Source of the DNA: an uncultured Candidatus Saccharibacteria bacterium
Lineage (GTDB): Bacteria; Patescibacteriota; Doudnabacteria; UBA920
Direction of reading: 5' to 3'
NCBI GenBank assembly: GCA_964436545.1
Contig: CAYTCJ010000002.1
Coordinates: forward strand, 110,738 to 174,737
DNA length: 64,000 bases
In this document: in pieces, positions 3,757-62,528 of the stretch
Position numbering within the stretch: the first letter of the stretch is position 1
Layout of the letters: every line of letters begins with the position of its first letter
Made by a program: the position numbers and the translations under genes
Notes under the pieces: model-generated
Told to the model about the DNA's origin: nothing
The model's input: the letters and a program-made list of their open reading frames with translations, nothing else
Databases searched by the model: none

Positions 3757-3843
3757 ATTTCTAATCTACCAATTAAACAAATCTGGGATGTCAACAAATA
3801 AAATTTGTAGAGATTTGTATATTTGTTTCATTCGTATATTTGA

Positions 3844-6732: not shown

Positions 6733-6759
6733 TTTCTCTAAATTCATAATTCATAATTC

Positions 6760-8265: not shown

Positions 8266-8270
8266 TCAAT

Positions 8271-8312
8271 AAAAATTTTACCCGGGAAAACCGGGTAAAA
8301 TTTTTATTTTTT
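8271..8312 (+). terminator. Rho-independent terminator after gltX (AAAATTTTACCCGG-gaaaa-CCGGGTAAAATTTT + T-run)
   Basis: Perfect 14-bp stem, 5-nt loop and a T-tract directly after the gltX stop. Confidence 0.7.
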
Positions 8313-14605: not shown

Positions 14606-14695
14606 TTTATCTTATCCACTAATTCACGAATCAACACAAATTTCACTAAACCGATATTCGTGTCATTCGTGCTATTAGTGCATTAGTGGACAATT

Positions 14696-20596: not shown

Positions 20597-20720
20597 AAAT
20601 CACAGATTCACCGATTAGCACTGATTACACAGATGTAAAACATTAATCTTTAACCAAATAAATTATACCAGATTTAAATACTTAATAACAGAAAAAAGTA
20701 TTTTTTGATAAATATATGTG

Positions 20721-25525: not shown

Positions 25526-26259
25526 AAATCTTTAAGCGCAATCCTTCTAACCAATTCCCAAATTTGGTTATGCACCAAATCTACCGGTAAAAGATTTTTA
25601 TCTTCCATACACTCCACAATTTTGGTATTGGGAAAAAGCTCGGCGATTTGCAAATAAACATTTTGGGCTAACCGTAAATGAGTTAAATTTTTTTCGTGAA
25701 CGCTATCTATCCAATTCTCTTCCGATTTACGACTTTGGATTAATTTATGGGCCGACATATAAGGCATATTTAAAATAATATTCAAATCGGGTTTGGGCAT
25801 GCCAAAAATCGTGTATTCCAAATTATCCAACCATTTAAAAAATTTTAAACGCTCGGCTTCCTCGGTAATTTTACAACCTTGGTGTCCGGCATTGGCCGTA
25901 ACATACCTATCGGATAAAACAATTTTTCCTTCCAAAAGCCATTTTTTTATTTGGGCCGAGGCATCAAATCTGTCTACCGCATAAAAAATAGAAGCTGCAT
26001 AAGCATTCACTTCACCATATTTCCCTTTTAAATATTCATCAACCAAAAACGCGGTAGGCTGGCCATGACGAGGAAAATGAATACTTTCGGTTTTAAACCC
26101 ATTCAGTTCCAATTCTTGCTGTAACAATTTCCTTTGAGTAGATTTGCCACTGCCATCGATGCCATCGATGACAATTAACTTACCCAAAGGTTTGGATGGT
26201 TTTTTGCCAAATGGGGATCTTTTTAAGATTGTCATAAAATAAATGCACCAAAATGACAA
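25513..26259 (-). CDS. tmk: Thymidylate kinase
   Basis: P-loop IVIDGIDGSGKSTQ and DRY...AGHQG lid/NMP motifs. The true start is probably downstream of the listed one (the N-terminus is over-extended). Confidence 0.7.
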   Translation of the reverse strand: MSFWCIYFMTILKRSPFGKKPSKPLGKLIVIDGIDGSGKSTQRKLLQQELELNGFKTESIHFPRHGQPTAFLVDEYLKGKYGEVNAYAASIFYAVDRFDASAQIKKWLLEGKIVLSDRYVTANAGHQGCKITEEAERLKFFKWLDNLEYTIFGMPKPDLNIILNMPYMSAHKLIQSRKSEENWIDSVHEKNLTHLRLAQNVYLQIAELFPNTKIVECMEDKNLLPVDLVHNQIWELVRRIALKDLWLK

Positions 26260-26339
26260 AATTAAGCCTAAATGACAAAAACTTTCCCAATTTAATTCTT
26301 GTCATTTATTTAACTTGTGTCAATTAAAAACGAGCCTAC

Positions 26340-26891: not shown

Positions 26892-27035
26892 ATTTGTCCC
26901 TATAAATAAACCATATCCTTAAACCACATAGAACTCCTTTTTGTCCTTACTATGTCATTGTAATCCAATTATACCATAAATTGACTAACATTAAATATCC
27001 AGTTATGATGAATTTATGAGAATTATCATGAATTT

Positions 27036-27641
27036 ATGAAAAAAAATAGAGACTTGGAATTACTATATGAACTGGGTGCTTTACGGTTTATTCCACGAGC
27101 TTGGAAGCAGTTTTTTAATGCGGATTTTGAAAATTTAGCCGAACATCATTTCCGGGTGGCGTGGCTGGGAATGCTCTTGGCCAAAATGGAAAAACGAGGC
27201 GATGCCGGCAAAATTGTCCAAATGGCTTTAGTTCACGACATTGCGGAAAGTCGCACCGGCGATGCTCATGCCATTTCTCGGCAATACGTTAAACGTAACG
27301 AGCACTTGGGTGCCATGGATATGTTAAAAGACACACTTTTAGAACAAGATATGCTAAACCTGTGGCAAGAATACGAAGATCGCCACACTATTGAAGCCAA
27401 AATTGTTAAAGACGCCGATTGGTTAGATGTCGATTTGGAAATTAAAGAACAGTTAGCCAGAGGCCATGCGTCTTTAAGAGTGTGGATGCCCCAAAGAAAA
27501 TTGGTTTACGACAAATTTAATACCGCCTCAGCCAAAAAGCTCTTTAAGCTTATCCACCAATCCGACCCGTTTGATTGGCTCCTTCATGCCCGTTCGCGCT
27601 TTACCGAAGGCGATATGAAACCAAAACCAAACAAGAATTAA
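27036..27641 (+). CDS. HD-domain phosphohydrolase (YfbR-like 5'-deoxynucleotidase candidate)
   Basis: HD motif region HHFRVAWLGMLLA ... VHDIAESRTGD. 201 aa. Confidence 0.65.
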   Translation: MKKNRDLELLYELGALRFIPRAWKQFFNADFENLAEHHFRVAWLGMLLAKMEKRGDAGKIVQMALVHDIAESRTGDAHAISRQYVKRNEHLGAMDMLKDTLLEQDMLNLWQEYEDRHTIEAKIVKDADWLDVDLEIKEQLARGHASLRVWMPQRKLVYDKFNTASAKKLFKLIHQSDPFDWLLHARSRFTEGDMKPKPNKN

Positions 27642-31945: not shown

Positions 31946-32168
31946 AATTTTTTAATCCCCCCTCTTAGGGTAAGAGGGGGCTAGGGGGTGATATTGTTTA
32001 ATTCCAACCCTAAAATAATACACGAAAAAACCTTTCTTGACAAAATTTTCTCTGTGGATTAAAATAACCTAAATTATGAAATTCCAAAACCTTTCCAGCA
32101 TTATTAGCATTATTATTCCTCGCTTCAGGCAGTGGAAGAGTTTTTAATGCTTTAAATTAAATTCTCTG

Positions 32169-32200
32169 AAATCCCTGCCGTTAGGCAGGGATTTTTATTT
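32169..32200 (+). terminator. Intrinsic terminator (AAATCCCTGCC-gtta-GGCAGGGATTTTTATTT)
   Basis: Perfect stem plus T-tract inside a 1.7-kb region with no coding sequence. Confidence 0.6.
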
Positions 32201-32289
32201 TTATGGCTATATCATAAAAAAACAATCCATTAGTCCTATTGGTCATATAAATCTTATAAGACCTATATGACTTATATGACACAAACAAC

Positions 32290-32811
32290 CTTTAGACCGC
32301 CACCCCTTGCCCCCGAAGACTCGGGCGCAGAGAACATCGGCCTAAAAGGCCACTAAAAGGAGGATTTATGTTGGTGTTTCTGAAGATGGATGGGTACGTG
32401 AGTACCCAGGCGGGCCTCAATGCCCTCCAGGCCCAAGGGCTCCGGCCTGCGGGTCGCCAAGAAATCAGCGTCGCCCTAGACATGGGCGACAATGAAAAAA
32501 ACACTTATATGGTTTTTGCCAGACAGAAGGACTGGCAAACATCCTGCCCAGAGGCGTCAATCCGCCAATGGGAACCTACGCCGATCACAACGTGCCCGGT
32601 ATTGTACCGGGTTTGGATGGGAAATCCAGAGCCCCGAGAAATCCGGGAAATGTCGGTGGTGGGCGTGTGGCACGACCCCATATTTGTTGGGGTCAAGGAT
32701 GACTAACCGCGCGGGGAGGGGTGCAGAAAGATTTTGTATTTATAGGCCTTAAAACAGCCAACTAAAGCAAATTCTCTCTGCCCCCTCCCCGCAGAAAATT
32801 CTTTTTTTATC
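32290..32811 (+). other. GC-rich island of about 520 bp. Candidate structured RNA and/or foreign small gene
   Basis: GC content far above the flanks. Three or more frames are open on both strands. Multiple perfect hairpins. A 15-bp long-range stem GCGGGGAGGGGTGCAG / CTGCCCCCTCCCCGC (32710-32793) is followed by a T-run. Confidence 0.4.
32368..32706 (+). CDS. Candidate 112-aa ORF with a strong Shine-Dalgarno sequence (AAAGGAGGA, 4-nt spacer). May be spurious within a structured RNA
   Basis: Strong RBS plus ATG. GC-rich codons unlike the host genome. No recognisable domain. Confidence 0.25.
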   Translation: MLVFLKMDGYVSTQAGLNALQAQGLRPAGRQEISVALDMGDNEKNTYMVFARQKDWQTSCPEASIRQWEPTPITTCPVLYRVWMGNPEPREIREMSVVGVWHDPIFVGVKDD

Positions 32812-33012
32812 TTCTACCTTTTGACTCTAATTTTGCAGATATTATCCAACTATGGTATGGTATGAATACCTTAAACTTAGCATTCGGATTTGATTATTAC
32901 TTTTACTAATTAAATCCGAGTGCTAAGGGACCTAGCACTATTCAGCGAAGCCACAGGGTTTCCGGTTAGCCACTCTCCTCCAGCTAACCTGCTTAATAGC
33001 CCCCTGTGTGCC

Positions 33013-33042
33013 AAAAAAAATGGGGCGCTTACCGGTGCCCCA
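33013..33042 (-). terminator. Minus-strand intrinsic terminator (TGGGGCACCGGTAAGCGCCCCA + T8)
   Basis: Stem TGGGGC/GCCCCA with a 10-nt loop, followed on the minus strand by TTTTTTTT. Confidence 0.5.
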
Positions 33043-33184
33043 CTCTCAACTTTTGACAAAATTATTAAAATCCTATAAACTTTTTCTATGAAGCGATTAC
33101 AAACCAACTTAAGCCTTAACCTCCTTACCCTTACATACTTAAGGCGTAATTTGGTTTAGTTTTCAGTTAATACTTCTCTTTACC

Positions 33185-33216
33185 AAACCCCCGCCTTAAG
33201 GCGGGGGTTTTTTTAT
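33185..33216 (+). terminator. Plus-strand intrinsic terminator (AAACCCCCGCCTTAAGGCGGGGGTTTTTTT)
   Basis: Perfect 8-bp GC stem plus T7. The upstream ACUUAAGGCG (33139-33148) can pair with the 5' arm, giving an antiterminator-like alternative. Confidence 0.65.
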
Positions 33217-33425
33217 TTTACTGTAAACAGTAAAATAACCCTTCGTAGTCCCGCCATAGCGGGACGAAGTAGGGTAAATGATTTACCAAAGGAGGAAAAG
33301 TTAGTTGGTGGTCAGATTTTAGATTTTTAATTAAAAATGTTGGCTTTAAAATCAAATTTTAGGTTCTCCACAGAGTCGAACACTAAAATGATAAAAGTCT
33401 AAAATATGACCACCCAACAACAACC

Positions 33426-33460
33426 CAAAAAAATTTCTTCGGGCTTTAAGCCCGAAGACG
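33426..33460 (-). terminator. Minus-strand intrinsic terminator (CTTCGGGCTTAAAGCCCGAAG + T7)
   Basis: Perfect 8-bp stem followed on the minus strand by AAATTTTTTT. A second terminator about 115 nt downstream of the rplA terminator, delimiting a short GC-rich transcript candidate. Confidence 0.5.
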
Positions 33461-33521
33461 TATACATTCCCCGACAGGGGGATCCAGGTGTCCCCTGGCC
33501 AACCCTGTGGAACCGCCCTGT

Positions 33522-33547
33522 CCGGCGAGCCCCCGCTCGCCGGTTTT
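33522..33547 (+). terminator. Plus-strand hairpin plus T-run (CCGGCGAGC-cccc-GCTCGCCGG-TTTTT)
   Basis: Perfect 9-bp stem plus T5. Confidence 0.5.
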
Positions 33548-33573
33548 TCTTTTTATTAAAATGCCAAAAACAT

Positions 33574-33612
33574 GAAGACGGACTTCTGGGATTTTCCCAG
33601 AGGTCCGTCTTC
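33574..33612 (-). terminator. Terminator hairpin immediately downstream of rplA
   Basis: GAAGACGGACCTCTGGG-aaaat-CCCAGAAGTCCGTCTTC on the minus strand, followed by a U-rich tract. Confidence 0.55.
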
Positions 33613-33620
33613 AGATGGAC

Positions 33621-35670: not shown

Positions 35671-35869
35671 AAATTTCCTTAAATTCGAAATTCTAAACCC
35701 GAAATTCGAAACAATACTAATAATTAAAATCTAAATTTCATAATTTTAGAAGCGAAATTATGAAATTAACTTACACTAATCACTAATTGGCACTAATACA
35801 CAGATTATCTTACTCAGTTGGGTGTTAAGAAAATCATCTGTGTATTGGTGGTATCTGTGTTCTGTGAAA
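35671..35869 (-). promoter_or_regulatory. rplK 5' leader region containing CACAGAT/ATCTGTG inverted heptamers and GAAATTCGAAA tandem units
   Basis: On the gene strand: CACAGAACACAGATACCACCAATACACAGAT...ATCTGTGTATTAGTGCCAATTAGTGATTAGTG...AATTTCGGGTTTAGAATTTCGAATTT. A possible L1/L11 autoregulatory leader. Function not established. Confidence 0.35.
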
Positions 35870-43334: not shown

Positions 43335-43451
43335 TTAAGAAAAATTAAAATGTAAAACTCAAAGTATAAACTGACAAATAAAAATTCAAAATGATTATTG
43401 CAATTTTTACTTTTGCAGTGTCATTTTGATTTTTGATTTTTAAATTTTGAT

Positions 43452-45134
43452 TTATTGAAGAAAACTTATTAACTCATTTATTTTTATAAGTTGAGTTTCA
43501 CTTAATGCTCTTTTCTTTACCTCCACACTCTCCTTCTCTAAGGTTTTTGAGCTTACCACGATTCTGTAAGGAATACCAATTAAATCACTGTCGGCAAATT
43601 TTACTCCGGCGCTTAATTCCCGGTCATCATATAATACCTCAATTCCGTCTCTAAGCAAAGTCTCATACAAATTTTCCGCCACCTGTTCTGTGCCTTTTAA
43701 GGCAATTAAATGCACGGTAAACGGCGCAACCGCCGGTGGCCAAATTATCCCTTTGGCATCGTGAAATTTTTCCACCACCGCTGCCATAGTCCTACCCACG
43801 CCAATGCCATAACAACCCATATAAAAGGGCTTAGCTTCGCCATCTTCGTCTCTAAAATTTGCCCCTTTCATTAATTGGGTATAATGGTAGCCAAGTTGAA
43901 AAATATTCCCTACCTCAATCCCGCGCTTTTCTTCCAAAGGTTTATTATTAACCGAAATAAACCCCGCTTTCACTAAAGCAATATCGCCAATTATATCCGG
44001 CTCATAATCTCTGTGAAGATTAACATTTAACAAATCACAATGTTGTTTATTGGCCCCGCCATACATATTTTTAACAGTTGCCAAAGAATCATCAGCCACA
44101 ATAATTAAATCTGGATGCTTAATTTTTACGGGTGATAAGAATCCGGGCTCAGAGTTTAAGTTTTGCCTGATTTCTTCATCTGTGGCATGTCTTAACTCAA
44201 CAGATTTTATTAGACTTTTTAACTTTACTTCATTAACCTCAAAATCCCCCCGAATAATTGCCAAAATAAACCGTTTTTTTTCATCTACATACAAAACATC
44301 TTTAATTTGTCGCCACAAAGGCAACTTATGAAACTTAACGCCGTCCTCCATAGTCTTACCTCTTACTGCCTCCACTTCCACCAATGCTTGTTCGGGTTCA
44401 TTTAAATTCATATCGGCTTTTATAAATTTTGCCACGTCTTCGTGAGCGCTGTAAACACCGTCGGTAAAAAATTTGGTTTCGCCAATGGGCGATTCCACTA
44501 CAAACTCATGACAATATTCCCCGCCAATATAACCATTATCGCTTTCCACCACTAAAGTCTCCAAGCCCAAGCGCTGAAAAATTCGAGTATAAACCTGTTT
44601 AAGTTTTTCGTATTCCAGTTTAAAATCCTCTTCGTTTTTATGAAAAGAATAACCATCTTTCATAATAAACTCCCTTACCCTTAAAAGTCCGCCTCTGGCC
44701 CGAAGTTCGTCTCTAAATTTAGTGGAGAATTGATACAAATGAAAAGGCAAATCTTTATAACTGAGTTGATATTTACGCACTAAATCCACAAACATTTCTT
44801 CCGCTGTCCCGCCTAAGGCAAACTCACTCTCCCTGCGGTCTTTAACTTTCATTAACTCAAAACCCGTAGTGCTGGTCCGGTTGGTTTCTTGCCACAATTC
44901 CAAAGGATGCAAAATTGGGGCCGACATTTCTTGGGCTCCGGCCCTATCCATTTCTTCCTTAATAATTGCCATAATTTTTTGCTGAACTCTATAGCCGACA
45001 GGTAAAAAATAATACCTGCCCGCTACCGACTCGGCAATGAACCCCGCCTGCTTTAAAAGCTTGGAAGAAATAATTTTTAAATCTTCCTCGGAAAAGGTTT
45101 TACTGGTTTTCAAAAAATATTTACTTTGTCTCAT
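43452..45134 (-). CDS. proS: Prolyl-tRNA synthetase (class II)
   Basis: Class II motifs and ProRS anticodon-binding C-terminal region. 560 aa. Confidence 0.85.
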   Translation of the reverse strand: MRQSKYFLKTSKTFSEEDLKIISSKLLKQAGFIAESVAGRYYFLPVGYRVQQKIMAIIKEEMDRAGAQEMSAPILHPLELWQETNRTSTTGFELMKVKDRRESEFALGGTAEEMFVDLVRKYQLSYKDLPFHLYQFSTKFRDELRARGGLLRVREFIMKDGYSFHKNEEDFKLEYEKLKQVYTRIFQRLGLETLVVESDNGYIGGEYCHEFVVESPIGETKFFTDGVYSAHEDVAKFIKADMNLNEPEQALVEVEAVRGKTMEDGVKFHKLPLWRQIKDVLYVDEKKRFILAIIRGDFEVNEVKLKSLIKSVELRHATDEEIRQNLNSEPGFLSPVKIKHPDLIIVADDSLATVKNMYGGANKQHCDLLNVNLHRDYEPDIIGDIALVKAGFISVNNKPLEEKRGIEVGNIFQLGYHYTQLMKGANFRDEDGEAKPFYMGCYGIGVGRTMAAVVEKFHDAKGIIWPPAVAPFTVHLIALKGTEQVAENLYETLLRDGIEVLYDDRELSAGVKFADSDLIGIPYRIVVSSKTLEKESVEVKKRALSETQLIKINELISFLQ

Positions 45135-45208
45135 AAATCACAGATTAATGCACTGATTACGCAGATAACACAGACATATTATTGATAATCCTTTTAATTA
45201 AAACTTTT

Positions 45209-45538
45209 TTACTTTGTCTCAAACCGGTCTAAAATTGTATAAATTTCTGAAAGTTTTTGATTTAACACTCTACTTATTTCTGAGTTTGGTATAAAATCTT
45301 GCTCAAGTATATCACCCGCTTGTTTTTTATAAGCATCTATAGACGTAGCCTTCTCGATTTTACTTTTACCACCGGCAATTTTCATCATCCCCTTAAAATC
45401 TTCCACAGATACTTTTAACTGTTCCAAAATTGCGATATTTCTGGCACCTGCGAATCCTGCATGATAAGTCCTAGGCCGAAACGCTCTTAATTGAGCTAAT
45501 CTCGCTCCCTCACTTAATTCACCGGTTTCTAATGACAT
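45209..45538 (-). CDS. Hypothetical protein (109 aa)
   Basis: Clean ORF. No family recognised. Confidence 0.4.
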   Translation of the reverse strand: MSLETGELSEGARLAQLRAFRPRTYHAGFAGARNIAILEQLKVSVEDFKGMMKIAGGKSKIEKATSIDAYKKQAGDILEQDFIPNSEISRVLNQKLSEIYTILDRFETK

Positions 45539-45600
45539 AAAAAATCTTTAAATAATAAATTATTATTATTGCTATCTGCACTCATCTGTGTATCTGTGAA

Positions 45601-47792: not shown

Positions 47793-47945
47793 AACAATAT
47801 GATACTAATCTACAAATTATTACTAATAATGCAAATAATACTAATTTTGATCTTTTAAAATTCTCTATGCAGACCAATAAGCTCTTGTTTCGCGAGGTAT
47901 TCGTATAATTTGCATCATTCGCATGCATTAGTATATTAGTATCGC

Positions 47946-49001: not shown

Positions 49002-49085
49002 AAATTTTCAATTTTCGAATAAAACAAATCTACAAAATTTTTTATTCGTTGTTATTTGTAAATTCGTTCCATGGGTTGATTTAAA

Positions 49086-52594: not shown

Positions 52595-54133
52595 TTAGGC
52601 TAATTTTTGTTTCAACAGTTCATTAATTTTCTGCGGATTCCCCTTCCCTTTCAGCTCCTTCATAGTTTGTCCCACCAAAAACCCAAAACTTTTTTGCTCT
52701 CCGCCTTTATAATCCGAAACGGCTTTTGGATTATCTGTCATTACCTTATCAATTGCCAATGCAATCACTGCATCATCACTTACTTGTTTTAAACCCAAAT
52801 CCTCCACAATGTTGGAAGGATCGCCACCTTTTTCAAACATTACTTTAAACACTTGTTTGCCGGCAGAACCGGAGATTTCACCGGTTTGAATCATTTTTAA
52901 AAGTTCGGCAAAATTTTCCGCATCCACTCGTGAATCCGCCGGGTTTAAAAGCTGTTGATTTAACAAAGCGCTAAATTCCCCCAAACACCAATTCACGGCT
53001 TGTTTGATAATTGCCTGTCTGCCTGTAGGGGAAGCCATTGGCTTCCCGTTTTCTGGGCGGGCAATGCCCGCCCCTACATCTACATTCATCCATTCATCAA
53101 CCTCACTCACTACATTTTCAAAAAAAGTTGCCATTTCTTTCCAAGCAATTAAATTTTCCACATCGGCCTTAGGCAAACCGTATTCATTTAAAAATCTCTG
53201 TCTTTTTTGTGCGGGCAACTCCGGCATTTTACTTTTAAGCTCGCCTAAATACTCTTGAGTAAAATGTAAAATCGGCAAGTCAGGATCCGGAAAATACCGG
53301 TAGTCATTTGCCTCTTCTTTGGTTCTTTGTTCTACGGTACAACCTTGTTTTTCATCCCACCCCATAGTTACTTGCTTAGGCATGCCACCGGACTTTAAAA
53401 TTTCTATTTGGCGGGCAATTTCGTAATCGATGGCATTTTGCGCAAACCGAAAAGAATTAATATTTTTTACTTCCACTTTATATTTAGGCAAAGTGGTTTC
53501 TCCGGGTTTTCTCACGGAAATACTGGGTTCACAGCGCATAATGCCTTTTTCCATATCACAAGACGAGGCACCTAAATACTTTACAATATTTTTTATTTCC
53601 GATAAAAACGCGTAAGCTTCCTCTCCACTACTTATTTCCGGCTCCGTAACAATTTCGAGTAGCGGAGTGCCGGCACGATTATAATCTACCAAAGAATACG
53701 GCAAACCTTCGGGGTGAATATTCTTTCCCGCATCTTCTTCCAAATGAGCACGGGTAATATTTACTCTTTTTACTTTCCCGTTGACTTCAATATCTAAAAA
53801 ACCACTCCTAGCAATTGGTTTATCAAATTGGGAAATTTGGTAGCCTTTAGGAAGGTCGGGATAAAAATAGTGCTTACGGTCAAACTTGCTCCACTCGTCT
53901 ATTTGGCAATTTAAAGCCAACCCCACCATAGCGCTAAGCCTGATGGCCTCTTTATTAGCCACAGGCAAAGTACCAGGCTGACCTGTGTTGACCTCGTCAA
54001 TATCTACATTCGGATCTGCTTGGTCCGGATTATTTGGCGCTATGCCAAACATCTTAGATTTTGTCGCAAGCTGAATGTGGATTTCAAAGCCAATAACTGG
54101 CTCATACTCGGTTGATGCTGGATATGTTTTCAT
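52595..54133 (-). CDS. gatB: Glu-tRNA(Gln)/Asp-tRNA(Asn) amidotransferase subunit B
   Basis: GatB N-terminal catalytic region (PVIGFEIHIQL) and C-terminal YqeY-like tail. 512 aa. Confidence 0.9.
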   Translation of the reverse strand: MKTYPASTEYEPVIGFEIHIQLATKSKMFGIAPNNPDQADPNVDIDEVNTGQPGTLPVANKEAIRLSAMVGLALNCQIDEWSKFDRKHYFYPDLPKGYQISQFDKPIARSGFLDIEVNGKVKRVNITRAHLEEDAGKNIHPEGLPYSLVDYNRAGTPLLEIVTEPEISSGEEAYAFLSEIKNIVKYLGASSCDMEKGIMRCEPSISVRKPGETTLPKYKVEVKNINSFRFAQNAIDYEIARQIEILKSGGMPKQVTMGWDEKQGCTVEQRTKEEANDYRYFPDPDLPILHFTQEYLGELKSKMPELPAQKRQRFLNEYGLPKADVENLIAWKEMATFFENVVSEVDEWMNVDVGAGIARPENGKPMASPTGRQAIIKQAVNWCLGEFSALLNQQLLNPADSRVDAENFAELLKMIQTGEISGSAGKQVFKVMFEKGGDPSNIVEDLGLKQVSDDAVIALAIDKVMTDNPKAVSDYKGGEQKSFGFLVGQTMKELKGKGNPQKINELLKQKLA

Positions 54134-54152
54134 AATTCATTATTCATACTTC

Positions 54153-55634
54153 TTAATTCATCTCCGGATGCTTTTTATGCCACGCGGTGACTTGCTGGTA
54201 AGCATAACCTAAATTAAATATGGTTTGCTCGCCCCACTGGGGGCCAATAATTTGGAGACCCACGGGCAATTCTATTTCTGCGCCATCGCTAGGTTTACCC
54301 ATTCCGCAAGGCACGGACACAGCCGGAAGTCCGGCTAAAGAAGAAGGAATATTTAATTGATCGGCAATATACCCAAACAAAGGATTATTTTTAGCATTCC
54401 CAATTTTTACCGCAACATTTGGACTAGCGGGACATACCAAAGCATCAACCTGTTTAAAGACTTCTGCAAATTCATTTACAATTAAGCGTCGCACTTTTTG
54501 TGCCCGTTTATAATACGCATCATAATAACCCGCGGACAATACGTACGTACCGGTAAGAATTCGGCGTTTAGCTTCGTCCCCAAAACCTTCGGCACGGCTT
54601 TTGGCATAAACTTCATAAAGATTTTTGGCTTCACGAGAGGAATGCCCATAACGAATCCCATCGTACCGCATTAAATTAGAAGAAACTTCACTGGGACAAA
54701 TTATGGCATAAACCAAAGAACCGTATTTCGTGTTAGGCAAACTCACTTCTGAAACTTTAGCGCCTAATTTTTCTAATTCCTTAACCGCGGTTAAGACTGC
54801 ATTTTTTACCCCCGGCTCCATACCTTCCACAAAATATTCTTTGGGAATTCCTAGTCTCAAACCTTGAATATCTGCTGTTAAATTTTGAGTATAAGTTGGC
54901 ACCGGCACATCACCGGTAGTAGAATCGTGAGTATCTTTGCCGGAAATAATTTCAGCTAATTTTGCCAAATCTTCCACCGAATAAGCCACAGCGCCCGGAC
55001 AATCCAAAGAACTACCCATGGCAATAATGCCGTTTCTGGACACCCGACCATAGGTAGGCTTCCAGCCACTAATCCCACAAAGTGAAGAAGGTTGCCTAAT
55101 GCTTCCACCGGTTTCGGTAGCGGTTGCCCAAGGTGCCAAACCTCCTGCCACAGCCGATGTAGAACCACCACTACTACCACCCGGAATTCTGCTAATATCC
55201 CACGGATTTTTGGAAGCTCCAAAAGCGGAAGTTTCCGTACTGCTCCCATGAGCAAATTCATCTAAATTGGTTTTACCCAATAACACGGCTTTTTGCTCTC
55301 TTATTTTTTTTGTAACTTGACCTTCATAAGGAGGTAAATAATTTTCTAAAATTTTACTGGCAGCTGTGGTTTTTACTCCTTTGGTTAAAAACAAATCTTT
55401 GGAAGCATAAGGGATTCCGCACAAAAAAGGGTTTTCTCCCCCGCTGGCCATATATTCATCGGCTTCTGTAGCCTGTTTTAAAGCTTCTGCTTCACAAACC
55501 GTAATAAAGGAATTCAACTCGGTATCGTATTTTCTCACGCGCGCTAAAAAATACTTCGTCAATTCCACAGAAGAAACTTTTTTCTCATCTAATAACTTTC
55601 GCAGTTCAGTGAGTGATAAATATTCAAAATTCAT
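54153..55634 (-). CDS. gatA: Glu-tRNA(Gln) amidotransferase subunit A (amidase signature)
   Basis: Amidase signature GGSSGGSTSAVAGG and Ser-cisSer-Lys triad context. 493 aa. Confidence 0.9.
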   Translation of the reverse strand: MNFEYLSLTELRKLLDEKKVSSVELTKYFLARVRKYDTELNSFITVCEAEALKQATEADEYMASGGENPFLCGIPYASKDLFLTKGVKTTAASKILENYLPPYEGQVTKKIREQKAVLLGKTNLDEFAHGSSTETSAFGASKNPWDISRIPGGSSGGSTSAVAGGLAPWATATETGGSIRQPSSLCGISGWKPTYGRVSRNGIIAMGSSLDCPGAVAYSVEDLAKLAEIISGKDTHDSTTGDVPVPTYTQNLTADIQGLRLGIPKEYFVEGMEPGVKNAVLTAVKELEKLGAKVSEVSLPNTKYGSLVYAIICPSEVSSNLMRYDGIRYGHSSREAKNLYEVYAKSRAEGFGDEAKRRILTGTYVLSAGYYDAYYKRAQKVRRLIVNEFAEVFKQVDALVCPASPNVAVKIGNAKNNPLFGYIADQLNIPSSLAGLPAVSVPCGMGKPSDGAEIELPVGLQIIGPQWGEQTIFNLGYAYQQVTAWHKKHPEMN

Positions 55635-55697
55635 AATTAGCGTTTAGCGTTTAGCGTTTAGCGTTTAGGCTAAATCCTAATCGCTACCGACTAAAAG

Positions 55698-55979
55698 CTA
55701 GAGTATTGTTTTAACCTTAAAGTATCTGTCTTTCATTTCCGGCGCTTGGGAAAAAATATCTTGATGAATATCCGATACAACCGGCACATCTGCTCTTTGC
55801 ACGTTCACGAGACCCGTAACCTGCGACACCTCTTCCAAACCCTCCACATTCACCGCTTTAAGCTCTTCCACATATTCCAAAACCTTAGACAAGTCTTTTT
55901 GGAACTTGTCCACCTGAGCGTCAGTAAGTTCAATTCTGGCTAAAAATGCAATTTTTCTTACTTCTTCAATAGTTAACAT
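55698..55979 (-). CDS. gatC: Glu-tRNA(Gln) amidotransferase subunit C
   Basis: 93 aa. LTIEEVRKIAFLARIELTDAQ is typical of GatC. Located upstream of gatA-gatB. Confidence 0.8.
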   Translation of the reverse strand: MLTIEEVRKIAFLARIELTDAQVDKFQKDLSKVLEYVEELKAVNVEGLEEVSQVTGLVNVQRADVPVVSDIHQDIFSQAPEMKDRYFKVKTIL

Positions 55980-56021
55980 AAAAAAATTATACTCAAATCA
56001 AGCCCTGCGGTCAAACCCGTT

Positions 56022-58427
56022 TTAACTCTTGGGATTTTGATTAATCCGGGCAAACACCGTGCGTAAAAATTGACGCTGGATTTCCACGCCCATATGCTCA
56101 AATAATTTTCGACTTTCCAAAATATAGTCAATTAACGGATCTTCGGAAGCATAAGAAAATAGTCCGGCTTCTTCTTTTAAAATATCCATTAATTCCAAAT
56201 GCCCGCTCCAATTCTGGTCTATAATTTGCAAAACCAAATTTTGACAAGCCGAATAAACTTCCGGATTGGTTTTTAACCTTTCCATTTGGCCGGTTAATTC
56301 CCGAACAATCCCATTCACCGCTGTCTGAAACCGAAACGGCCTTTGGGAAACAAACACCGGATTAAACCATTCGTTTAAATTCTCCCCCCAAGTTTTTTTA
56401 GCATTTAATTCGGCTAAACCACTTCCGGTAATTTTTAACCCAAAAATCGCATTTAATTCTTGAGTGATTAACTCGGGGACTTGAAGCGCTAAAATATGCT
56501 CTACGGTTTCCGTAATGGCATTTTGCACAAAAGCTTCAAAACCTGTGGGGTTTTCTAACAAGCTGTCTCTTAATTTATAAACCTCAAACCGTTGATAGTT
56601 AGTTACGCTATCATACTTATATAAATAGATGCGACCATCAAAATTCTTACTTTCCACAAAATCTTGCGCTTTTTTAAAAGCCAAATCCAAACTCGGCGCG
56701 CTAATGTATTCATCTTCCGGAATATCAAACTCTTCCATGGCGTCAATAATGCTTTCACTGCCAAACAACCGCATAATTTCATCTTCCATGGAAATTAAAA
56801 ATTGCGATTCTCCCGCATCACCTTGCCTGCCACTTCTCCCAACTAATTGATTATCGATCCGGCGTGACTCGTGCCGTTCTGTGCCCAGCACAAACAGACC
56901 ACCCACATCGGCCACCCCTTGGCCCAATAAAATATCTGTGCCTCTCCCGGCCATATTCGTAGCCACGGTAATCATGCCTCTTTGTCCGGCTTTGGCGATT
57001 TTTTCACTTTCCGCCTTGTGGTCTTTAGCGGTCAAGAGTTGATAGGGTAAATTTTGTTCATCTAAAATTTCCGAAATTAAATGAGCGATCTCCACATTTC
57101 TGGCGCCAATTAAAATGGGCTGACCTTTACTATTAATATGCTTAATTTTTTTTATTAATCCGGCAAATTTGCCTTTTTCAGTTTTAAAAAACAAATCATT
57201 ATGGTCAATTCTGGCTAACGGCCGATTGGTGGGGATTTGCACTACATCTAACTTATAGACTCGGTTAAATTCCTCCCTTGCAGACATCACCGTGCCACTC
57301 ATGCCCGAAAGTTTTTCGTACATGGGAAAAAAATTCTGAAAAGTAATACTGGCAGCGGTCCGGTCGGCTTCTTTCACTTTAACCTTTTCTTTGGCCTCAA
57401 TGGCTTGGTGCACGCCATCGGTAAACCTTCTCCCCGGCAATACCCGGCCGGTAAACTCATCTACAATTTCTACACCTTCCGGTGAAATAATGTAATCCCT
57501 ATCTCGCTCAAATAACACTCTGGCTCTTAAGCACACGTCTAAATAAAAAGCGAACATGGGTTTGTCTTTGGAAAAAATCGTTTCCCCCAATAATTTTTCC
57601 ACTCGATTCAAACCACTATCTGTCATGCTCACGGCCTTATTTTTATAATCCACTTTAAAATCTTCCTCTTCCACCAGCCTCGCACATAGCTCGGTGAATT
57701 GAGTATAATAATTTCTTTCTTCCTTCAAAGGCTCGGCAATAATTAATGGCGTGCGAGATTCATCTATTAAAATCGAATCAATTTCATCTACAATGCCAAA
57801 ATGCAACGGATGCTTGAGCCTTAACACTCGGTCGGATTTTGCATACACCAAATTATCCCGTAAATAATCAAAACCCACTTCTTGATTGGTTACGTAAGTT
57901 ACATCACTCAAGTAAGCTTTGCGCCTTTGCTCGCTTTTCATGGTAGAAGTCACATAACCTACGCTCATTCCCAAAGCTTCATACAGCTTACCGTTTAATT
58001 TAGCGTCTCGTTCTGCCAAATAATCATTGGTGGTAATAATGTGCACACCTTGTCCGGTAAGCGCATTTAAATATACCGGCATGGTTTCGGTTAAAGTTTT
58101 ACCTTCGCCCGCTTTCATTTCCGCCACTCGGCCTTGGTGAATAACCATACCCGCTAAAATTTGCACATCAAAAGGCACCCGATTTAATACCCGCCGTGCT
58201 GTCTCGCCCACCACTGCGAAAGCGGGAATTAACAGCCTGTCTAAAGCTTTGCCTTTTTGCAAATCGTCTTTAAACGCCGAACCCGCGAGCTTTAATTCCT
58301 TATCGCTCCAGGTTTTTAACTCCTCTCTTTCCTTAACAATTAACTTAACCTTATCTTCCAAACGGCTAATATAATTTCTGTCCAAAAAGTCGTTAAATTT
58401 TTGTTTTAGATTTTGTGTAAATTGCAT
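56022..58427 (-). CDS. secA: Preprotein translocase ATPase SecA
   Basis: DEAD-like motor (MKAGEGKTLT Walker A, the VDEIDSILIDESRTPLII Walker B (DEID)/helicase motif II region), PPXD, HSD. 801 aa, lacking the C-terminal Zn finger. Confidence 0.9.
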   Translation of the reverse strand: MQFTQNLKQKFNDFLDRNYISRLEDKVKLIVKEREELKTWSDKELKLAGSAFKDDLQKGKALDRLLIPAFAVVGETARRVLNRVPFDVQILAGMVIHQGRVAEMKAGEGKTLTETMPVYLNALTGQGVHIITTNDYLAERDAKLNGKLYEALGMSVGYVTSTMKSEQRRKAYLSDVTYVTNQEVGFDYLRDNLVYAKSDRVLRLKHPLHFGIVDEIDSILIDESRTPLIIAEPLKEERNYYTQFTELCARLVEEEDFKVDYKNKAVSMTDSGLNRVEKLLGETIFSKDKPMFAFYLDVCLRARVLFERDRDYIISPEGVEIVDEFTGRVLPGRRFTDGVHQAIEAKEKVKVKEADRTAASITFQNFFPMYEKLSGMSGTVMSAREEFNRVYKLDVVQIPTNRPLARIDHNDLFFKTEKGKFAGLIKKIKHINSKGQPILIGARNVEIAHLISEILDEQNLPYQLLTAKDHKAESEKIAKAGQRGMITVATNMAGRGTDILLGQGVADVGGLFVLGTERHESRRIDNQLVGRSGRQGDAGESQFLISMEDEIMRLFGSESIIDAMEEFDIPEDEYISAPSLDLAFKKAQDFVESKNFDGRIYLYKYDSVTNYQRFEVYKLRDSLLENPTGFEAFVQNAITETVEHILALQVPELITQELNAIFGLKITGSGLAELNAKKTWGENLNEWFNPVFVSQRPFRFQTAVNGIVRELTGQMERLKTNPEVYSACQNLVLQIIDQNWSGHLELMDILKEEAGLFSYASEDPLIDYILESRKLFEHMGVEIQRQFLRTVFARINQNPKS

Positions 58428-58455: not shown

Positions 58456-59180
58456 TCTTTTTTTTTGAGGAGGAGGGCTAGAGCTTGCCCCGTACTTGAT
58501 ACGGGGGGTGAGCTATCTATCTTTTCCCCTCTTTTCCAAAGAGGGGTTAGGGGAGTTAATTACTTCTAGCATTCTCTGATAAACTCCTTCTATATTTTTT
58601 ATCACATCAATATTCTGAAACCTAATAACTTTAATACCAATCAATTTCAAATATTCAGTTCTTTGTTTATCGGCTTTAATCAGACTTTCCTCAAAATGAT
58701 GTCCTCCATCTAACTCCACAGCTAACTTTTTTTCTGGACAATAAAAATCTAAAATATAATTGCCTATACCAAACTGCCTAAAAAATTTACAACCTTTAAT
58801 TTGTCTATTCCTTACAATATTCCAAATTTTCCGTTCTGGTTCTGTTAAATTTTTCCGCAACTTTCTTCTTAAATCTTTATTTTTAGCAATATTACTTATC
58901 AACATAACTCCCTCCAAATAACTCCCTCCAACTCCCTCTTTGGAAAAGAGGGAGGGTAAGACAATGTATTTTGTAGATCCTCTCTTTTCCAAAGAAGGTG
59001 GTTAGGAGATTCCTGTTCCCTCTCTTTTCCAAAGAGAGGGTTAGGGTGAGTTAGCTGTCTTCTTCCCCACTTTTCCAAAGCATGCCCTGAGCTTGCCGAA
59101 CGGGAGAGGGCTAAAGCTTAACCTGTACCTGATGCGGTTTGCATTCCATACCTAGTGGGCTTGCCCTGAGATAATTGATT
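58456..59180. repeat. Hairpin-repeat array surrounding the DUF559 gene, with five or more copies of an about 30-bp unit CCCTCT(C)TTTCCAAAGAG(A)GGGTTAGGG(G)GAG in both orientations, plus GAGCTTGCC x3
   Basis: Copies at about 58529-58562, 58933-58972 (inverted), 58976-59008, 59015-59050 and 59063-59085. About 35-bp direct repeats GTGAG(C/T)TA(T/G)CT...TTCCCC(T/A)CTTTTCCAAAG lie at 58500-58545 and 59046-59082. GC content is elevated. Confidence 0.75.
58513..58992 (-). CDS. DUF559 endonuclease-domain protein (Vsr/restriction-endonuclease-like fold). Both ORF ends are encoded by flanking hairpin repeats
   Basis: The core (LDFYCPEKKLAVELDGGHHF...D...VIRF) matches DUF559. The N-terminal MEKRGS...LFSKEGVGG and the C-terminal EKRGKDR are translations of CCAAAGAGGGG repeat units. 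The likely real start is MLISNIAK. Confidence 0.65.
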   Translation of the reverse strand: MEKRGSTKYIVLPSLFSKEGVGGSYLEGVMLISNIAKNKDLRRKLRKNLTEPERKIWNIVRNRQIKGCKFFRQFGIGNYILDFYCPEKKLAVELDGGHHFEESLIKADKQRTEYLKLIGIKVIRFQNIDVIKNIEGVYQRMLEVINSPNPSLEKRGKDR

Positions 59181-59286: not shown

Positions 59287-59691
59287 CTAATGATCCTCCC
59301 TCTGCCACCAGTCCTGCATTTCTTCACTGCAAAGCTCGCAACGCAAAGTTACTTCAGTAACCCCGTACTGCTTGAGCTGTGTATCATCGATGTTAATGAC
59401 TCTCCACTGATGATCGCATTTGATCTTCTTGGGGAAATACGGAATGATAGTTTCATCTGGATGCACATGAGCGTACATACTTTCCTCTTTCTGATTGAAT
59501 TTTATTTTTTTGGCAACCCCGACGACCTTAGTGCCGGAGTAAAAACAAAAAACCCTTCCTCGCAAGGAAGGGGCTAAATTCATCTGCATCCTAAACTTGT
59601 TTACCCCGTAGCGAACCAAAGGTTCTGCTATTGGAGTTTCAGGATTTATTTTAGATGCTGAAATTAATTCAGCATGACAAGAAAAAATCAA
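59287..59691 (-). CDS. Hypothetical 134-aa protein with Cys pairs (CDHQW...CELCSEE), possible zinc ribbon
   Basis: Overlaps the upstream YerC-like gene by 4 nt (ATGA), implying co-translation. No family recognised. Confidence 0.4.
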   Translation of the reverse strand: MIFSCHAELISASKINPETPIAEPLVRYGVNKFRMQMNLAPSLRGRVFCFYSGTKVVGVAKKIKFNQKEESMYAHVHPDETIIPYFPKKIKCDHQWRVINIDDTQLKQYGVTEVTLRCELCSEEMQDWWQREDH

Positions 59692-60005
59692 AGTAACCCT
59701 TTCCCAACGAAGGAAAGGTTATGGTGCACGCCATTTCTTTTTAACATCAACTTATACCCACCCTTGCCATTCTTAAGCCACTTGGAAATCCGAGCAATGG
59801 TCCGGCTGGAAAGCCGAGTCTGTTTTTGAATAAGGTTATATGACACTTTGGCATTCAGCATTTGCACGGCGAGCCAACGGTTGCCGAATTCGTCCAGTTC
59901 ATCTGGGGTAAGCAAATCGCGAAAAAAAGCCTTAGCTTCTTTTATATTCTTTAAAGCCAAGATTGCTTGGAGCAACTGTTCAGTTTTAAGATTATCCCAT
60001 TTCAT
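59688..60005 (-). CDS. YerC/YecD-like TrpR-family DNA-binding protein
   Basis: 105 aa. LLTPDELDEFGNRWLAVQML...QTRLSSRTIARISKWLKNGKGGYK matches the TrpR-related YerC/YecD pattern. Confidence 0.55.
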   Translation of the reverse strand: MKWDNLKTEQLLQAILALKNIKEAKAFFRDLLTPDELDEFGNRWLAVQMLNAKVSYNLIQKQTRLSSRTIARISKWLKNGKGGYKLMLKRNGVHHNLSFVGKGLL

Positions 60006-60201
60006 ATCAATTCAATATTAGAAATTAGAAATTCTGAATATCACTTTACTTAAGTAAAGTATATCATATCCCCAAAATCTGTCAAGAAACTTTCACTAAA
60101 ATGTGCTATAATGTAAATAATGTGGTTAATTAATTATTAATTGTCATAGACAATACTTATTGCATCAGTGTAATCTGTGTTATCTGTGTATCTGTGAATA
60201 T

Positions 60202-60753
60202 ATGATGATATTTTGGATAATTTTAGGAGTTTTGGTATTAGGAGCCATAGGTATTTACAATGGGCTTATTCGTTCTAAAAACCGCGTAGACGAAGCTTGG
60301 AGCGACATTGAAGTCCAGTTAAAAAGAAGGTATGACCTTGTCCCTAATTTGGTGGAAACCGTGAAAGGTTTTGCCAAACAAGAAGCCGGTGTGTTAGAAA
60401 ATGTTACCAAGGCCAGAAATTTGGCCATGGGCGCCGGAGCGGATATGAAAGAAAAACTTAAAGACGAAAATCTGCTTTCCGGAGCTTTAAAGTCACTCTT
60501 TGCGGTGAGCGAAGCTTACCCTGACTTAAAAAGCAACACTAACTTTTTGCAAATGCAAAAAGACTTAGCCGATACTGAAGATAAAATTCAAGCAGCCAGA
60601 AGATTCTACAATGGCAATGTTCGAGACTTTAACACTAAATTGGAAGTCTTCCCTTCTAACCTGTTTGCTTCTATGTTTGGCTTTACCAAACGAGAATTTT
60701 TTGACATCGACGAAAAAGGTGTTGAAGGCCAACCAGTGAAAGTTAGCTTTTAG
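60202..60753 (+). CDS. lemA: LemA-family membrane protein
   Basis: N-terminal TM. YNGLIRSKNRVDEAWSDIEVQLKRRYDLVPNLVETVKG is the LemA signature. The ORF-track start (60160) lies inside the ATCTGTG repeat leader, so ATG 60202 is more likely. Confidence 0.8.
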   Translation: MMIFWIILGVLVLGAIGIYNGLIRSKNRVDEAWSDIEVQLKRRYDLVPNLVETVKGFAKQEAGVLENVTKARNLAMGAGADMKEKLKDENLLSGALKSLFAVSEAYPDLKSNTNFLQMQKDLADTEDKIQAARRFYNGNVRDFNTKLEVFPSNLFASMFGFTKREFFDIDEKGVEGQPVKVSF

Positions 60754-60810
60754 TTAGTAGTGGGTAGCATTTAGCTAAACGCTAATCGCTAAACCCTAAA
60801 CGCTTTTACC

Positions 60811-61803: not shown

Positions 61804-62319
61804 TTAAAAAACCAATCTTGCCACAACTTCTCCCCGAAAACCTTTAGTTTTTAACTTTTGTGCGATTTTTTGCTTAACCTGATTTTCCACCTCGTTAAAA
61901 TTACTATAATGAGGTTCTAAATTTGTTTCGGATTTCACAACTATCCCGACTTTTTTTAAAAACTTTTTGGCAATTTTTATTTCCTCTGCCAAGGTAAGTC
62001 CTTCCGCTAAAACTTTCTCAATGATTTTTGGGGGCAATTTTTTTTCCATCAATTTTTTCTTAATGCCATAATACCCAAAATTTTTATACTGCTTTAAATT
62101 TTCCACATAAACTTCCGCAAACTTTTGATCATCCAAATAGTTTTGAGCCGTAAGTCTTTGAATTACAGCATCGGCAATACTTAAGTCGTAATGCCTGATT
62201 TTCAGCTTTTCCCTTATTTCGCCTTCGGTGCGCAACCGCAAAGTTAACAAAAACATCGCGTACTCGTAAGCTTGTTCCGCATTCCTCGGCTCTTGGGTTT
62301 TAGTTGGTTTTTTATACAT
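61804..62319 (-). CDS. recX: RecX-family regulatory protein
   Basis: Three-helix repeats. AEQAYEYAMFLLTLRLRTEGEIREKL...YLDDQKFAEVY is typical of RecX. 171 aa. Confidence 0.6.
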   Translation of the reverse strand: MYKKPTKTQEPRNAEQAYEYAMFLLTLRLRTEGEIREKLKIRHYDLSIADAVIQRLTAQNYLDDQKFAEVYVENLKQYKNFGYYGIKKKLMEKKLPPKIIEKVLAEGLTLAEEIKIAKKFLKKVGIVVKSETNLEPHYSNFNEVENQVKQKIAQKLKTKGFRGEVVARLVF

Positions 62320-62528
62320 AAAAAGTCAAATCAACAAATTGGACAAATCTACCAATGTCTACAAATATGTTTATAATTATTTGCGGATTCGTTTGTTTGT
62401 AAATTTAAATTTATTAGCAGTCTATTGACTAGAGTGATAATTTGGTTATAATATAGTTATCTGACATAATTAAGTTTAGCAGATTATCTTATCTGTGTAA
62501 TCTGCATTAATCTGTGCATCTGTGAACT

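Follow-up and report, generated by a model that had tools for sequence, protein, structure and literature searches.

The window, by which we mean the whole stretch of 64,000 nucleotides analyzed here (G+C content ∼38%), derives from Candidatus Doudnabacteria, a clade of the Patescibacteria/CPR, where it was placed by its GatA homologues. On its minus strand, gatC (55698–55979), the first gene of its unit, is followed by gatA (54153–55634, ATG at 55634–55632), which encodes a 493-residue protein of the Amidase family. A sigma-70-type promoter found in a promoter scan (TTGACC-17-TATAAT, 11 of 12 matches; 55986–56014, minus strand) precedes gatC, with the ATG of the gene 7 nt past the TATAAT box. 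Between gatC and gatA, which share a strand, the scan revealed no promoter-like or terminator-like site, and no intrinsic terminator (a short GC-rich stem followed by a U-tract) was detected within 55550–56100; terminators of the canonical type are present elsewhere, for example at 8266–8310 and in convergent spacers. A Shine-Dalgarno site, in the sense of a purine-rich anti-SD complement 5–10 nt ahead of the start codon, is absent upstream of gatA. Rfam searches at the gathering threshold and at E ≤ 0.5 gave no relevant match, and neither tRNA nor tmRNA genes were found in the window. The gene names gatA, gltX, pyrG, HD hydrolase, mreB, rseP, tmk, and htpX were confirmed by Pfam.

The gatC-gatA spacer, counted from the gatC stop codon through the gatA ATG, extends over 55700–55632 (minus strand) and reads TAG CTTT TAG TCGG TAG CGAT TAG GATT TAG CC in its first part and TAAACGC TAAACGC TAAACGC TAAACGC TAATT ATG in its second. 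The CTAAACG repeat that had been reported against the gatA start is an exact tandem array of 4.6 copies at 55637–55668 on the minus strand (period 7, 100% match, TRF score 64), with 2 nt separating it from the ATG; on the gene strand the leader consists of four CTAAACG units followed by CTAA, TT, and ATG. The array has a tandem score of 25, where none of 2160 dinucleotide-shuffled upstream windows reached 12. There is an in-frame stop codon at −12 and the alignment of GatA homologues begins at residue 1; consequently, the CTAAACG tract is non-coding. The possibility that the array serves gatA as a sigma-70 promoter was rejected, as positions −12 to −7 read TAAACG, with no leaderless-type −10 box, and the scan returned no promoter site.

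In the predicted fold of the spacer, the CTAAACG array makes up the 3′ arm of a hairpin, on the side nearest the ATG; the 5′ arm and the loop are supplied by a degenerate inverted partner array (55669–55700, minus strand) whose TTAG-type units are the complement of CTAA. The gatC stop codon, which is the first TAG (55700–55698), is paired within the stem, with the stem starting at −3 from the end of the stop codon, and the last ∼10 nt before the gatA ATG (55644–55635) are unpaired in the minimum free energy fold. The hairpin has a predicted energy of −22.7 kcal/mol, with a z-score against dinucleotide shuffles of −3.2 to −4.3 depending on the stretch folded.

Immediately downstream, the gatA-gatB junction carries another heptad array (ATGAATx ×4.7, 54129–54161, minus strand, TRF), which covers both the gatA stop codon and the gatB ATG and differs by a 7-nt indel from that of the relative L001. 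The lemA-htpX spacer (60754–60810, plus strand; TRF and folds) is built from TTAG-type units followed by CTAAACG/CTAATCG/CTAAACC/CTAAACG and is a member of the family to which the gatA spacer belongs; the leaders of gatA and htpX are homologous, with a 30-nt core that is 93% identical and a likeness by eye over about 65 nt. The spacer between the BNR gene and frr (47793–47945, minus strand) folds over its whole length (z = −3.7), with arms made of ACTAAT/ACGAAT-type and ATTAGT/ATTTG-type inverted arrays. Ahead of rpmA (L27), CACTAAT/CACGAAT units are predicted to pair with ATTCGTG/ATTAGTG units (14606–14695, plus strand, z = −4.5), ahead of rplK there are CACAGAT / ATCTGTG inverted arrays with further hairpins (35671–35869, minus strand, z = −4.8), and tmk is preceded by AAATGACAA / TTTGTCATTT inverted units (26260–26339, minus strand, z = −4.7 from the folds). 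Additional hairpins lie in the proS-mreB spacer (43335–43451, minus strand, z = −2.3), with an ATCAAAA-type 5′ array (TRF, 43424–43458) and TTTTGA-type 3′ units; before an RNase T-like gene (3757–3843, minus strand, z = −2.2), where the stem of ACAAAT / ATTTGT inverted arrays runs from the stop codon up to 3 nt before the ATG; and between holB and the BNR gene (49002–49085, minus strand, z = −2.6 from the folds), where L001 has a 14-nt (two-unit) insertion. A z-score below −2 was obtained for 14 of the 41 leader-oriented spacers of the window, and the arms of those inspected, such as the spacers before rpmA, frr, rplK, tmk, and mreB, are inverted arrays. The genes that bear arrays are housekeeping genes (gatA, gatB, gltX, frr, rpmA, rplK, proS, thyA, pyrG, and mreB).

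Arrays of other kinds were also observed. The gltX gene has an exact direct array (AATTCAT ×3, 6741–6761, plus strand, TRF) with its ATG (6760) in the last unit, and the HD-hydrolase gene has a duplicated TAT(G/C)ATGAATTTATG module (27003–27039, plus strand, period ∼11, ×3.5, TRF) that gives rise to mini-ORFs with a TGA overlapping the genuine ATG; the latter array belongs to a divergent spacer and is preceded by a promoter, TTGACT-17-TATGAT, identified by eye. For an ABC ATPase gene, an ATCTGTG/ATCAGTG/ATCGGTG array stops 4 nt short of the ATG (20601–20634, minus strand), and further members of this ATCTGTG family are found at 45139–45180, 45584–45598, 60173–60196, 62491–62524, and 35799–35859. 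ATCTGTG occurs 20 times in all, as compared with 2.8 expected, and clusters at six intergenic sites in both orientations. In addition, the thyA leader is 87% identical over 47 nt to the far end of the frr spacer.

The original prediction had placed tandem repeats directly against many start codons, with different units at different genes. Beyond gatA, its examples at gltX (AATTCAT ×3), htpX, the HD-hydrolase gene (27003–27039), and pyrG hold. The mreB array, on the other hand, lies 90–117 nt upstream of the ATG, where it adjoins the proS stop codon as a 5′ hairpin arm, and the rseP array lies 27–58 nt upstream of its ATG; the two AATTGACCTAA copies listed as a tandem are 25 nt apart, start to start, and hence not tandem, and the units given as tandem at tmk and the TM gene are interspersed and partly inverted. 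Many different units do exist, but their locus specificity is incomplete, given the six ATCTGTG sites and the likeness of the gatA and htpX leaders.

Start-proximal enrichment of tandem repeats was nevertheless evident, with 50-nt segments upstream of starts having higher tandem scores than coding segments (Mann-Whitney p = 3 × 10−11) and shuffles (p = 1 × 10−6). In the self-identity of intergenic sequence, lag 7 stands out (+2.3%, about 6 SE), followed by a harmonic at lag 14, and the lag-7 signal is maximal between −30 and −10 from the ATG; the peak is absent in 60 control loci, mostly of unrelated bacteria and obtained by a GatA search of genome contigs, and in other CPR loci. TRF arrays of period 6–14 comprise 6–11% of intergenic bases in the clade loci, against 1.3–2.3% of coding bases and, averaged over 63 loci of unrelated bacteria, 2.6% of intergenic bases.

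When the spacers of 14 clade loci were divided by class, lag-7 identity was 0.357 ± 0.005 in same-strand spacers (n = 106, expected 0.300), 0.293 in divergent spacers (n = 19, expected 0.303), and 0.294 in convergent spacers (n = 11, expected 0.280), which contain ordinary terminators (mean z = −4.6). Same-strand spacers with a start-adjacent, leaderless-type −10 box had a lag-7 identity of 0.281 (n = 16), as compared with 0.374 in those without such a box (n = 83). Taken together, periodicity by spacer class and by promoter status indicates that the heptad arrays mark promoter-less same-strand junctions, in presumed operons, and not gene starts generally. Thus, the claim of repeats beside many starts stands with respect to coding sequence and shuffles, and falls for divergent and promoter-bearing junctions, which have no such periodicity. 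Hairpins that bridge the junction from stop to start, defined as beginning ≤5 nt from the stop codon and ending ≤15 nt from the start codon, were found in 14 of 32 structured spacers and in 4 of 28 in low-GC control bacteria.

Two other candidate features of the leaders were considered and rejected. A stop codon in each of the three frames was seen in 12.9% of leaders, where 11.6% were expected (z = 0.5), which gives no indication of selection; CTAAACG and TAG units provide one stop per 7 nt, whereas the CTACAAG ×12 array of L090 contains none in any frame. Depletion of ATG in spacers (z = −4.7) was rejected as evidence of scanning, as CAT (z = −4.1) and the controls are depleted too.

Shine-Dalgarno-like pairing was found for 14% of genes against 12% in shuffles; in the control loci from Firmicutes, the corresponding figures are 63% and 34%. 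The reported absence of Shine-Dalgarno sequences at the repeat-bearing genes is therefore correct, but it is a genome-wide property and not special to them; these data support initiation that is independent of Shine-Dalgarno sites, and the non-canonical initiation originally suggested is in agreement with a signal at shuffle level. The leaderless-style promoters were likewise borne out: TATAAT-N6-7-ATG occurs seven times, where 2.2 are expected, with six of these at ORF starts including that of gatC, and a −10 box at leaderless-type spacing, 5–8 nt ahead of the ATG, is found at gatC and five other genes. Base −1 is T at 63% of starts, and positions −12 to −1 are poor in G and C. There is a clean partition, with start-adjacent promoters at some junctions and heptad arrays or hairpins at the rest.

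To follow one junction through the clade, 17 gatC-gatA junctions of Doudnabacteria were compared. In 11 of the 17 the spacer folds with z ≤ −2.8 against shuffles, and each of the 14 folds tabulated has a stem that begins between −3 and +4 nt from the stop codon and ends between −3 and 26 nt before the ATG (mode about 10). In a relative with GatA 92% identical (four assemblies, L001–L004) the CTAAACG unit is present in 6.6 copies instead of 4.6; at the L001 junction the left arm has diverged and the loop is larger (z about −4.0). Elsewhere in the clade the unit is a different one: at least eight unrelated repeat units occupy this junction, including, besides CTAAACG in the window and L001, CTACAAG ×12 (L090), TACGAA/TTCGTA and TTCGTAA (L088, L108), ATCAAGA/TCTTGAT (L087), AAAAC/GTTTT (L094, L099), CGAAA/TTTCG (L098), GGGTAGA/CCCTAAA (L103), and GGTTCAA/TTGAACC (L109). 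The architecture of the gatC-gatA hairpin thus persists across lineages while its sequence gets replaced. Direct arrays only are present in L091 and L106, and short spacers without arrays in L092, L097, L107, and the more distant L005–L007; the L107 spacer is 2 nt long and in L097 gatC and gatA overlap. As the element is missing in these sister lineages, it must be dispensable for gatCA expression.

From this geometry and distribution we infer that gatC and gatA are co-transcribed and that the element acts at the RNA level to couple their translation. The arrays would be an intercistronic mRNA element, built by slippage and kept by selection, that couples translation of the downstream gene to that of the upstream gene; we give this reading a probability of roughly 0.4. 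Replication slippage, to which units of seven nt are the most prone in bacteria, would keep creating and resizing tandem units of ∼7 nt before the starts of operon-internal genes, and a degenerate inverted copy of the array, starting at or inside the upstream stop codon, would pair with the ATG-proximal array. The whole spacer could then fold as one long imperfect hairpin that tolerates register shifts and brings stop and start together. A ribosome at the gatC stop codon would have to open the base of the stem, and the melted base would free the A/U-rich stretch by the gatA AUG and leave the terminating ribosome beside it, from where gatA would be translated by hand-over or unmasking, without a Shine-Dalgarno site. 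The first genes of transcription units would instead rely on a promoter 6–7 nt before the ATG, which yields a leaderless mRNA. Since periodic arms can shift in register, the hairpin would be robust to 7-nt indels, and register shifting also offers an explanation for unequal arms, such as the 12 units facing about 4 in L090.

Some observations limit this model. The AUG and about 10 nt upstream of it are already unpaired in the fold of the window spacer, and masking can consequently be only partial. Opening of positions −20 to +10 costs 4.1 kcal/mol in local and 7.9 kcal/mol in whole-spacer context for array leaders, against 5.1 and 7.6 kcal/mol for other leaders, a difference that is not significant, and the masking energy of array leaders is not significantly larger than that of other leaders. 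Direct-only arrays (gltX, L106, and L091) count against a coupling hairpin. It is doubtful whether the element represents, more broadly, an undescribed general mode of initiation in this Shine-Dalgarno-less CPR clade, in which heptad hairpins would hand ribosomes from stop to AUG in a manner resembling shunting.

The arrays could instead be a mutational by-product, in which slippage and template switching in quasi-palindromes make and homogenize functionless arrays wherever spacers tolerate them, an explanation we regard as unlikely. The prediction of slippage-prone tracts was upheld by the 4.6 versus 6.6 copies in relatives with 92% identical GatA and by the 7- and 14-nt indels that distinguish other leaders of the window and L001; copy number rises to 12 in L090, and the ATG-proximal arrays are perfect, as if recent. 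According to PMC4679880, which cites Mrazek 2007, no long simple repeats are commoner in bacteria than heptamers, and polymerase slippage is their probable source; this known bias favors a by-product, as does the absence of the element in sister lineages. However, between the window and L001, in which four-fold degenerate sites are only 49% identical (683/1384) and third codon positions 61%, the htpX leader and spacer match at 71 of 73 nt and the BNR-gene/frr spacer is 94% identical. Such conservation (94–97%) speaks against functionless sequence, and by this comparison some array leaders are under strong purifying selection; the rseP and miaA spacers are unconserved. The lack of periodicity in divergent spacers, which are the longest, and in convergent and promoter-bearing ones, together with the maintenance of a hairpin at one junction despite replacement of its sequence, also argues against a by-product.

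Strand comparisons bear on the same question. Over 68 spacers the sense strand folded better than the antisense strand in 36 and worse in 29 (p = 0.27), with no sense advantage, whereas in control bacteria the sense strand does fold better. The gatC-gatA hairpins are mostly strand-symmetric, in line with a by-product, and only in the L094/L099 lineage does sense beat antisense, by 14–23 kcal/mol, via 5–8 G-U pairs. Without an overall sense-strand advantage, selection at the RNA level is no more than putative, and a palindrome that acts at the DNA level or is purely mutational would be possible. Covariation was rejected as evidence for RNA pairing. In the comparison of the window with L001, and likewise in that of L094 with L099, every stem substitution preserves pairing, but this is equally so in the antisense control, which makes the absence of broken pairs in RNAalifold a circular result.

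Somewhat less likely is that the arrays serve as serial docking sites where an RNA-binding protein, be it S1, a cold-shock protein, or a factor like CsrA, recruits or blocks ribosomes. The position of the arrays directly before start codons that have no Shine-Dalgarno site and recurrent cores such as ATTNG and ATCTGTG would suit this role, for which there is a published precedent in that an RNA-binding protein was proposed for the TAACTGA repeats of Beggiatoaceae (PMC4679880). Against it, at least eight unrelated units at one orthologous junction make a sequence-specific binder unlikely, and the arrays are largely base-paired. A common motif was also sought and rejected; ATTAG and ATTTG are only about 2-fold enriched, and the arrays are not explained by a single core.

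The hairpin might alternatively act in RNA processing or stability, either by being cut by RNase III or some other endonuclease or by acting as an exonuclease barrier, thereby separating the cistrons or stabilizing their flanks. Correia and ERIC elements and the T7 intercistronic RNase III sites act in processing and stability, and long imperfect intercistronic stems without a U-tract, confined to same-strand junctions, would be compatible with such a function. Yet the stems are weak, AT-rich, and interrupted about every 5 bp, differential stability has no obvious purpose where GatC and GatA are needed in equal amounts, and the direct-only arrays are left unexplained, all of which renders this account improbable.

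Dispersal of palindromic REP/REPIN- or MITE-like elements between intergenic sites is very improbable. Although there are families within the genome (the gatA and htpX leaders, the thyA leader and frr spacer, and ATCTGTG at six sites) and presence varies among lineages, the families found in the window are small and most loci have their own unit, convergent spacers contain none, and REP and MITE elements have no heptad periodicity. No gene for a Y1 (RAYT) transposase is present in the window, where the ORF next to htpX (61804–62319) encodes RecX; L001 does have a Y1 gene, but the GC-rich hairpin beside it is unrelated.

Finally, the original readings of the arrays as unstructured 30S standby sites or as contingency (phase-variable) tracts have very little left in their favor: A/U-rich leaders without Shine-Dalgarno sites, the inability of a direct array by itself to self-pair, and copy-number differences between species are outweighed by an array that is paired in the predicted fold as the 3′ hairpin arm, by accessibility no better than in other leaders, by direct-only leaders that fold like their own shuffles (z about 0), and, for contingency, by the housekeeping nature of the genes, the strong conservation of some leaders, and a tract that is identical in four independent assemblies of one strain, although these assemblies carry no SNPs at all.

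The translational coupling element favored here would address the problem of how operon-internal genes are started without Shine-Dalgarno pairing, given that leaderless initiation covers first genes only, and the arrays and hairpins offer a concrete candidate, open to testing, for the mechanism that is missing in this large radiation of uncultivated bacteria. Should the hand-over reading be true, slippage would rebuild the element such that structure is conserved and sequence is not. An element that keeps its architecture while slippage swaps its sequence will be missed by homology-based RNA searches; gene callers that use ribosome-binding motifs will mis-set starts in such genomes, and at the arrays both assembly errors and length differences between strains are likely.

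A search of the literature found no description of such elements in CPR bacteria or Doudnabacteria. The contingency loci of Haemophilus, Neisseria, and Moraxella also have slippage-prone short tandem repeats between promoter and start, but these belong to surface, virulence, and restriction-modification genes and vary within populations, unlike the partly constrained leaders of housekeeping genes found here. REP/BIME, ERIC, and Correia elements resemble the spacers in being imperfect intergenic palindromes, with some families within a genome, that are co-transcribed with genes and can affect mRNA stability and translation; they are, however, high-copy and sequence-conserved, often lie at 3′ ends or in convergent sites, and have no heptad periodicity, whereas the units here are mostly local and absent from convergent spacers.

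With respect to mechanism, ribosome shunting, or termination-reinitiation across a stem, is known from the CaMV 35S leader and is a eukaryotic 40S mechanism. The likeness is one of analogy only, in that one foot of the hairpin is where an upstream ORF terminates and initiation occurs past the other foot, and to our knowledge there is no established bacterial example. Closer is classical translational coupling, exemplified by the MS2 coat-replicase junction and several E. coli operons. In such coupling, an upstream ribosome unmasks a sequestered initiation region (reviewed in PMC12548453). Both arrangements involve a same-strand junction, a pre-start region paired with sequence that the upstream ribosome opens, and a stop codon in the base of the stem. 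Classical coupling structures are single and sequence-specific and mask a Shine-Dalgarno site, whereas the coupling we infer would involve no Shine-Dalgarno site, a stem of periodic repeats that loops out 60–180 nt, and recurrence at many junctions.

Heptamer repeats as such have a related precedent in the STRR of cyanobacteria. The nearest precedent is the TAACTGA heptamer, found as direct repeats upstream of starts in marine Beggiatoaceae, certain Cyanobacteria, and a small number of Bacteroidetes (MacGregor 2015, PMC4679880). As in the window, its 7-nt units occur in tandem (2–6 or more copies) and end a few nt from the start, the preceding gene's stop codon is overlapped by some sets, 7-nt indels distinguish strains, recognizable ribosome-binding sites are rare, and the genes are housekeeping genes, including those of ribosomal proteins; its function is likewise a hypothesis. 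Throughout the genome, the TAACTGA system uses a single unit in one orientation; no structure is predicted for it, and just one set is inverted. The Doudnabacteria arrays, in a different phylum (Patescibacteria/CPR), comprise many units (CTAAACG, AATTCAT, ATCTGTG, ATTAGTx, and others) in both orientations and mostly in degenerate form, are restricted to promoter-less same-strand junctions, and include inverted arrays that give rise to predicted stop-to-start hairpins, with the unit itself replaced between lineages at the same junction.

Two of the repeat arrays, at 27003-27039 and 54129-54161, duplicate the start-codon context and thereby create mini-ORFs (MRIIMNL-stop, MNNEL-stop). In both, the TGA of the mini-ORF overlaps the real ATG as ATGA, a possible termination-reinitiation arrangement. 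For pyrG, tmk, and lemA, the longest ORF (16358-18070, 25513-26259, and 60160-60753, respectively) opens with a TTG codon located within or upstream of repeat arrays. Because the Pfam domains of these proteins start 20-30 residues into the longest ORFs, the true starts are probably ATGs further downstream. Wrong start calls by automatic callers are likely in this genome.

Between rseP and proS, a conserved, probably non-coding stretch of ∼460 nt (45135-45600) is bordered by two sets of arrays in inverted orientation, CACAGAT at one edge and ATCTGTG at the other. It includes a 109-residue ORF on the minus strand (45209-45538), for which a Pfam search returned no match. Identity between this ORF and its counterpart in L001, a relative locus, is flat by codon position (0.81/0.87/0.83), which argues that it is probably non-coding. 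The same rseP-proS position in other lineages is occupied by an NYN-domain gene or a different ORF.

The leader of the Trp-repressor-like gene (59688-60005, minus strand) carries a perfect 18-nt palindrome, ACTTTACTTAAGTAAAGT, at ∼60043-60060, which is retained in L001 despite divergence of the surrounding spacer. The palindrome resembles an operator, perhaps one through which the gene is autoregulated.

Between frr and rseP lies a gene whose product belongs to the "23S rRNA-intervening sequence protein" family (PF05635; 46832-47188, minus strand). This gene is missing from the corresponding position in both L001 and L085, another compared locus, and is therefore a lineage-specific insertion. 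Its leader contains two copies of AATTGACCTAA, and a similar sequence, TTTCTAATTGACCTAA, is found upstream of gatC and rseP in L085.

The ∼1.7-kb region at 31946-33620 contains few ORFs and includes a G+C-rich island (48-55% at 32200-32800 versus 38% overall). A 112-residue ORF at 32368-32706 has a perfectly canonical Shine-Dalgarno site, AAGGAGG, an atypical feature in this genome. Pfam, Rfam, and tRNA searches of the region were all negative. The region may have a foreign origin, or it may contain an RNA gene that has escaped recognition.

In L001, an IS200/Y1-transposase-family gene (L001 92-608) adjoins htpX, where the window has recX, and a GC-rich hairpin, GTAGTGCAGGCCAGTGGCCTGC, is present once within this gene and once, inverted, directly after it. 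This hairpin is REP-like and has no relation to the heptad arrays, the ∼7-nt tandem units of the spacers. A second recurrent hairpin type has CCCTC...GAGGG stems (e.g. CCCTCCCAAATACCTTTGGGAGGG, followed by a T-run) and is found at 96-135, 2402-2460, 31946-31990, 58993-59060, and 59692-59740, and upstream of secA in L001; GAGGG is over-represented in leaders (8 versus 2.4 expected). These hairpins look like canonical intrinsic terminators with a common stem motif.
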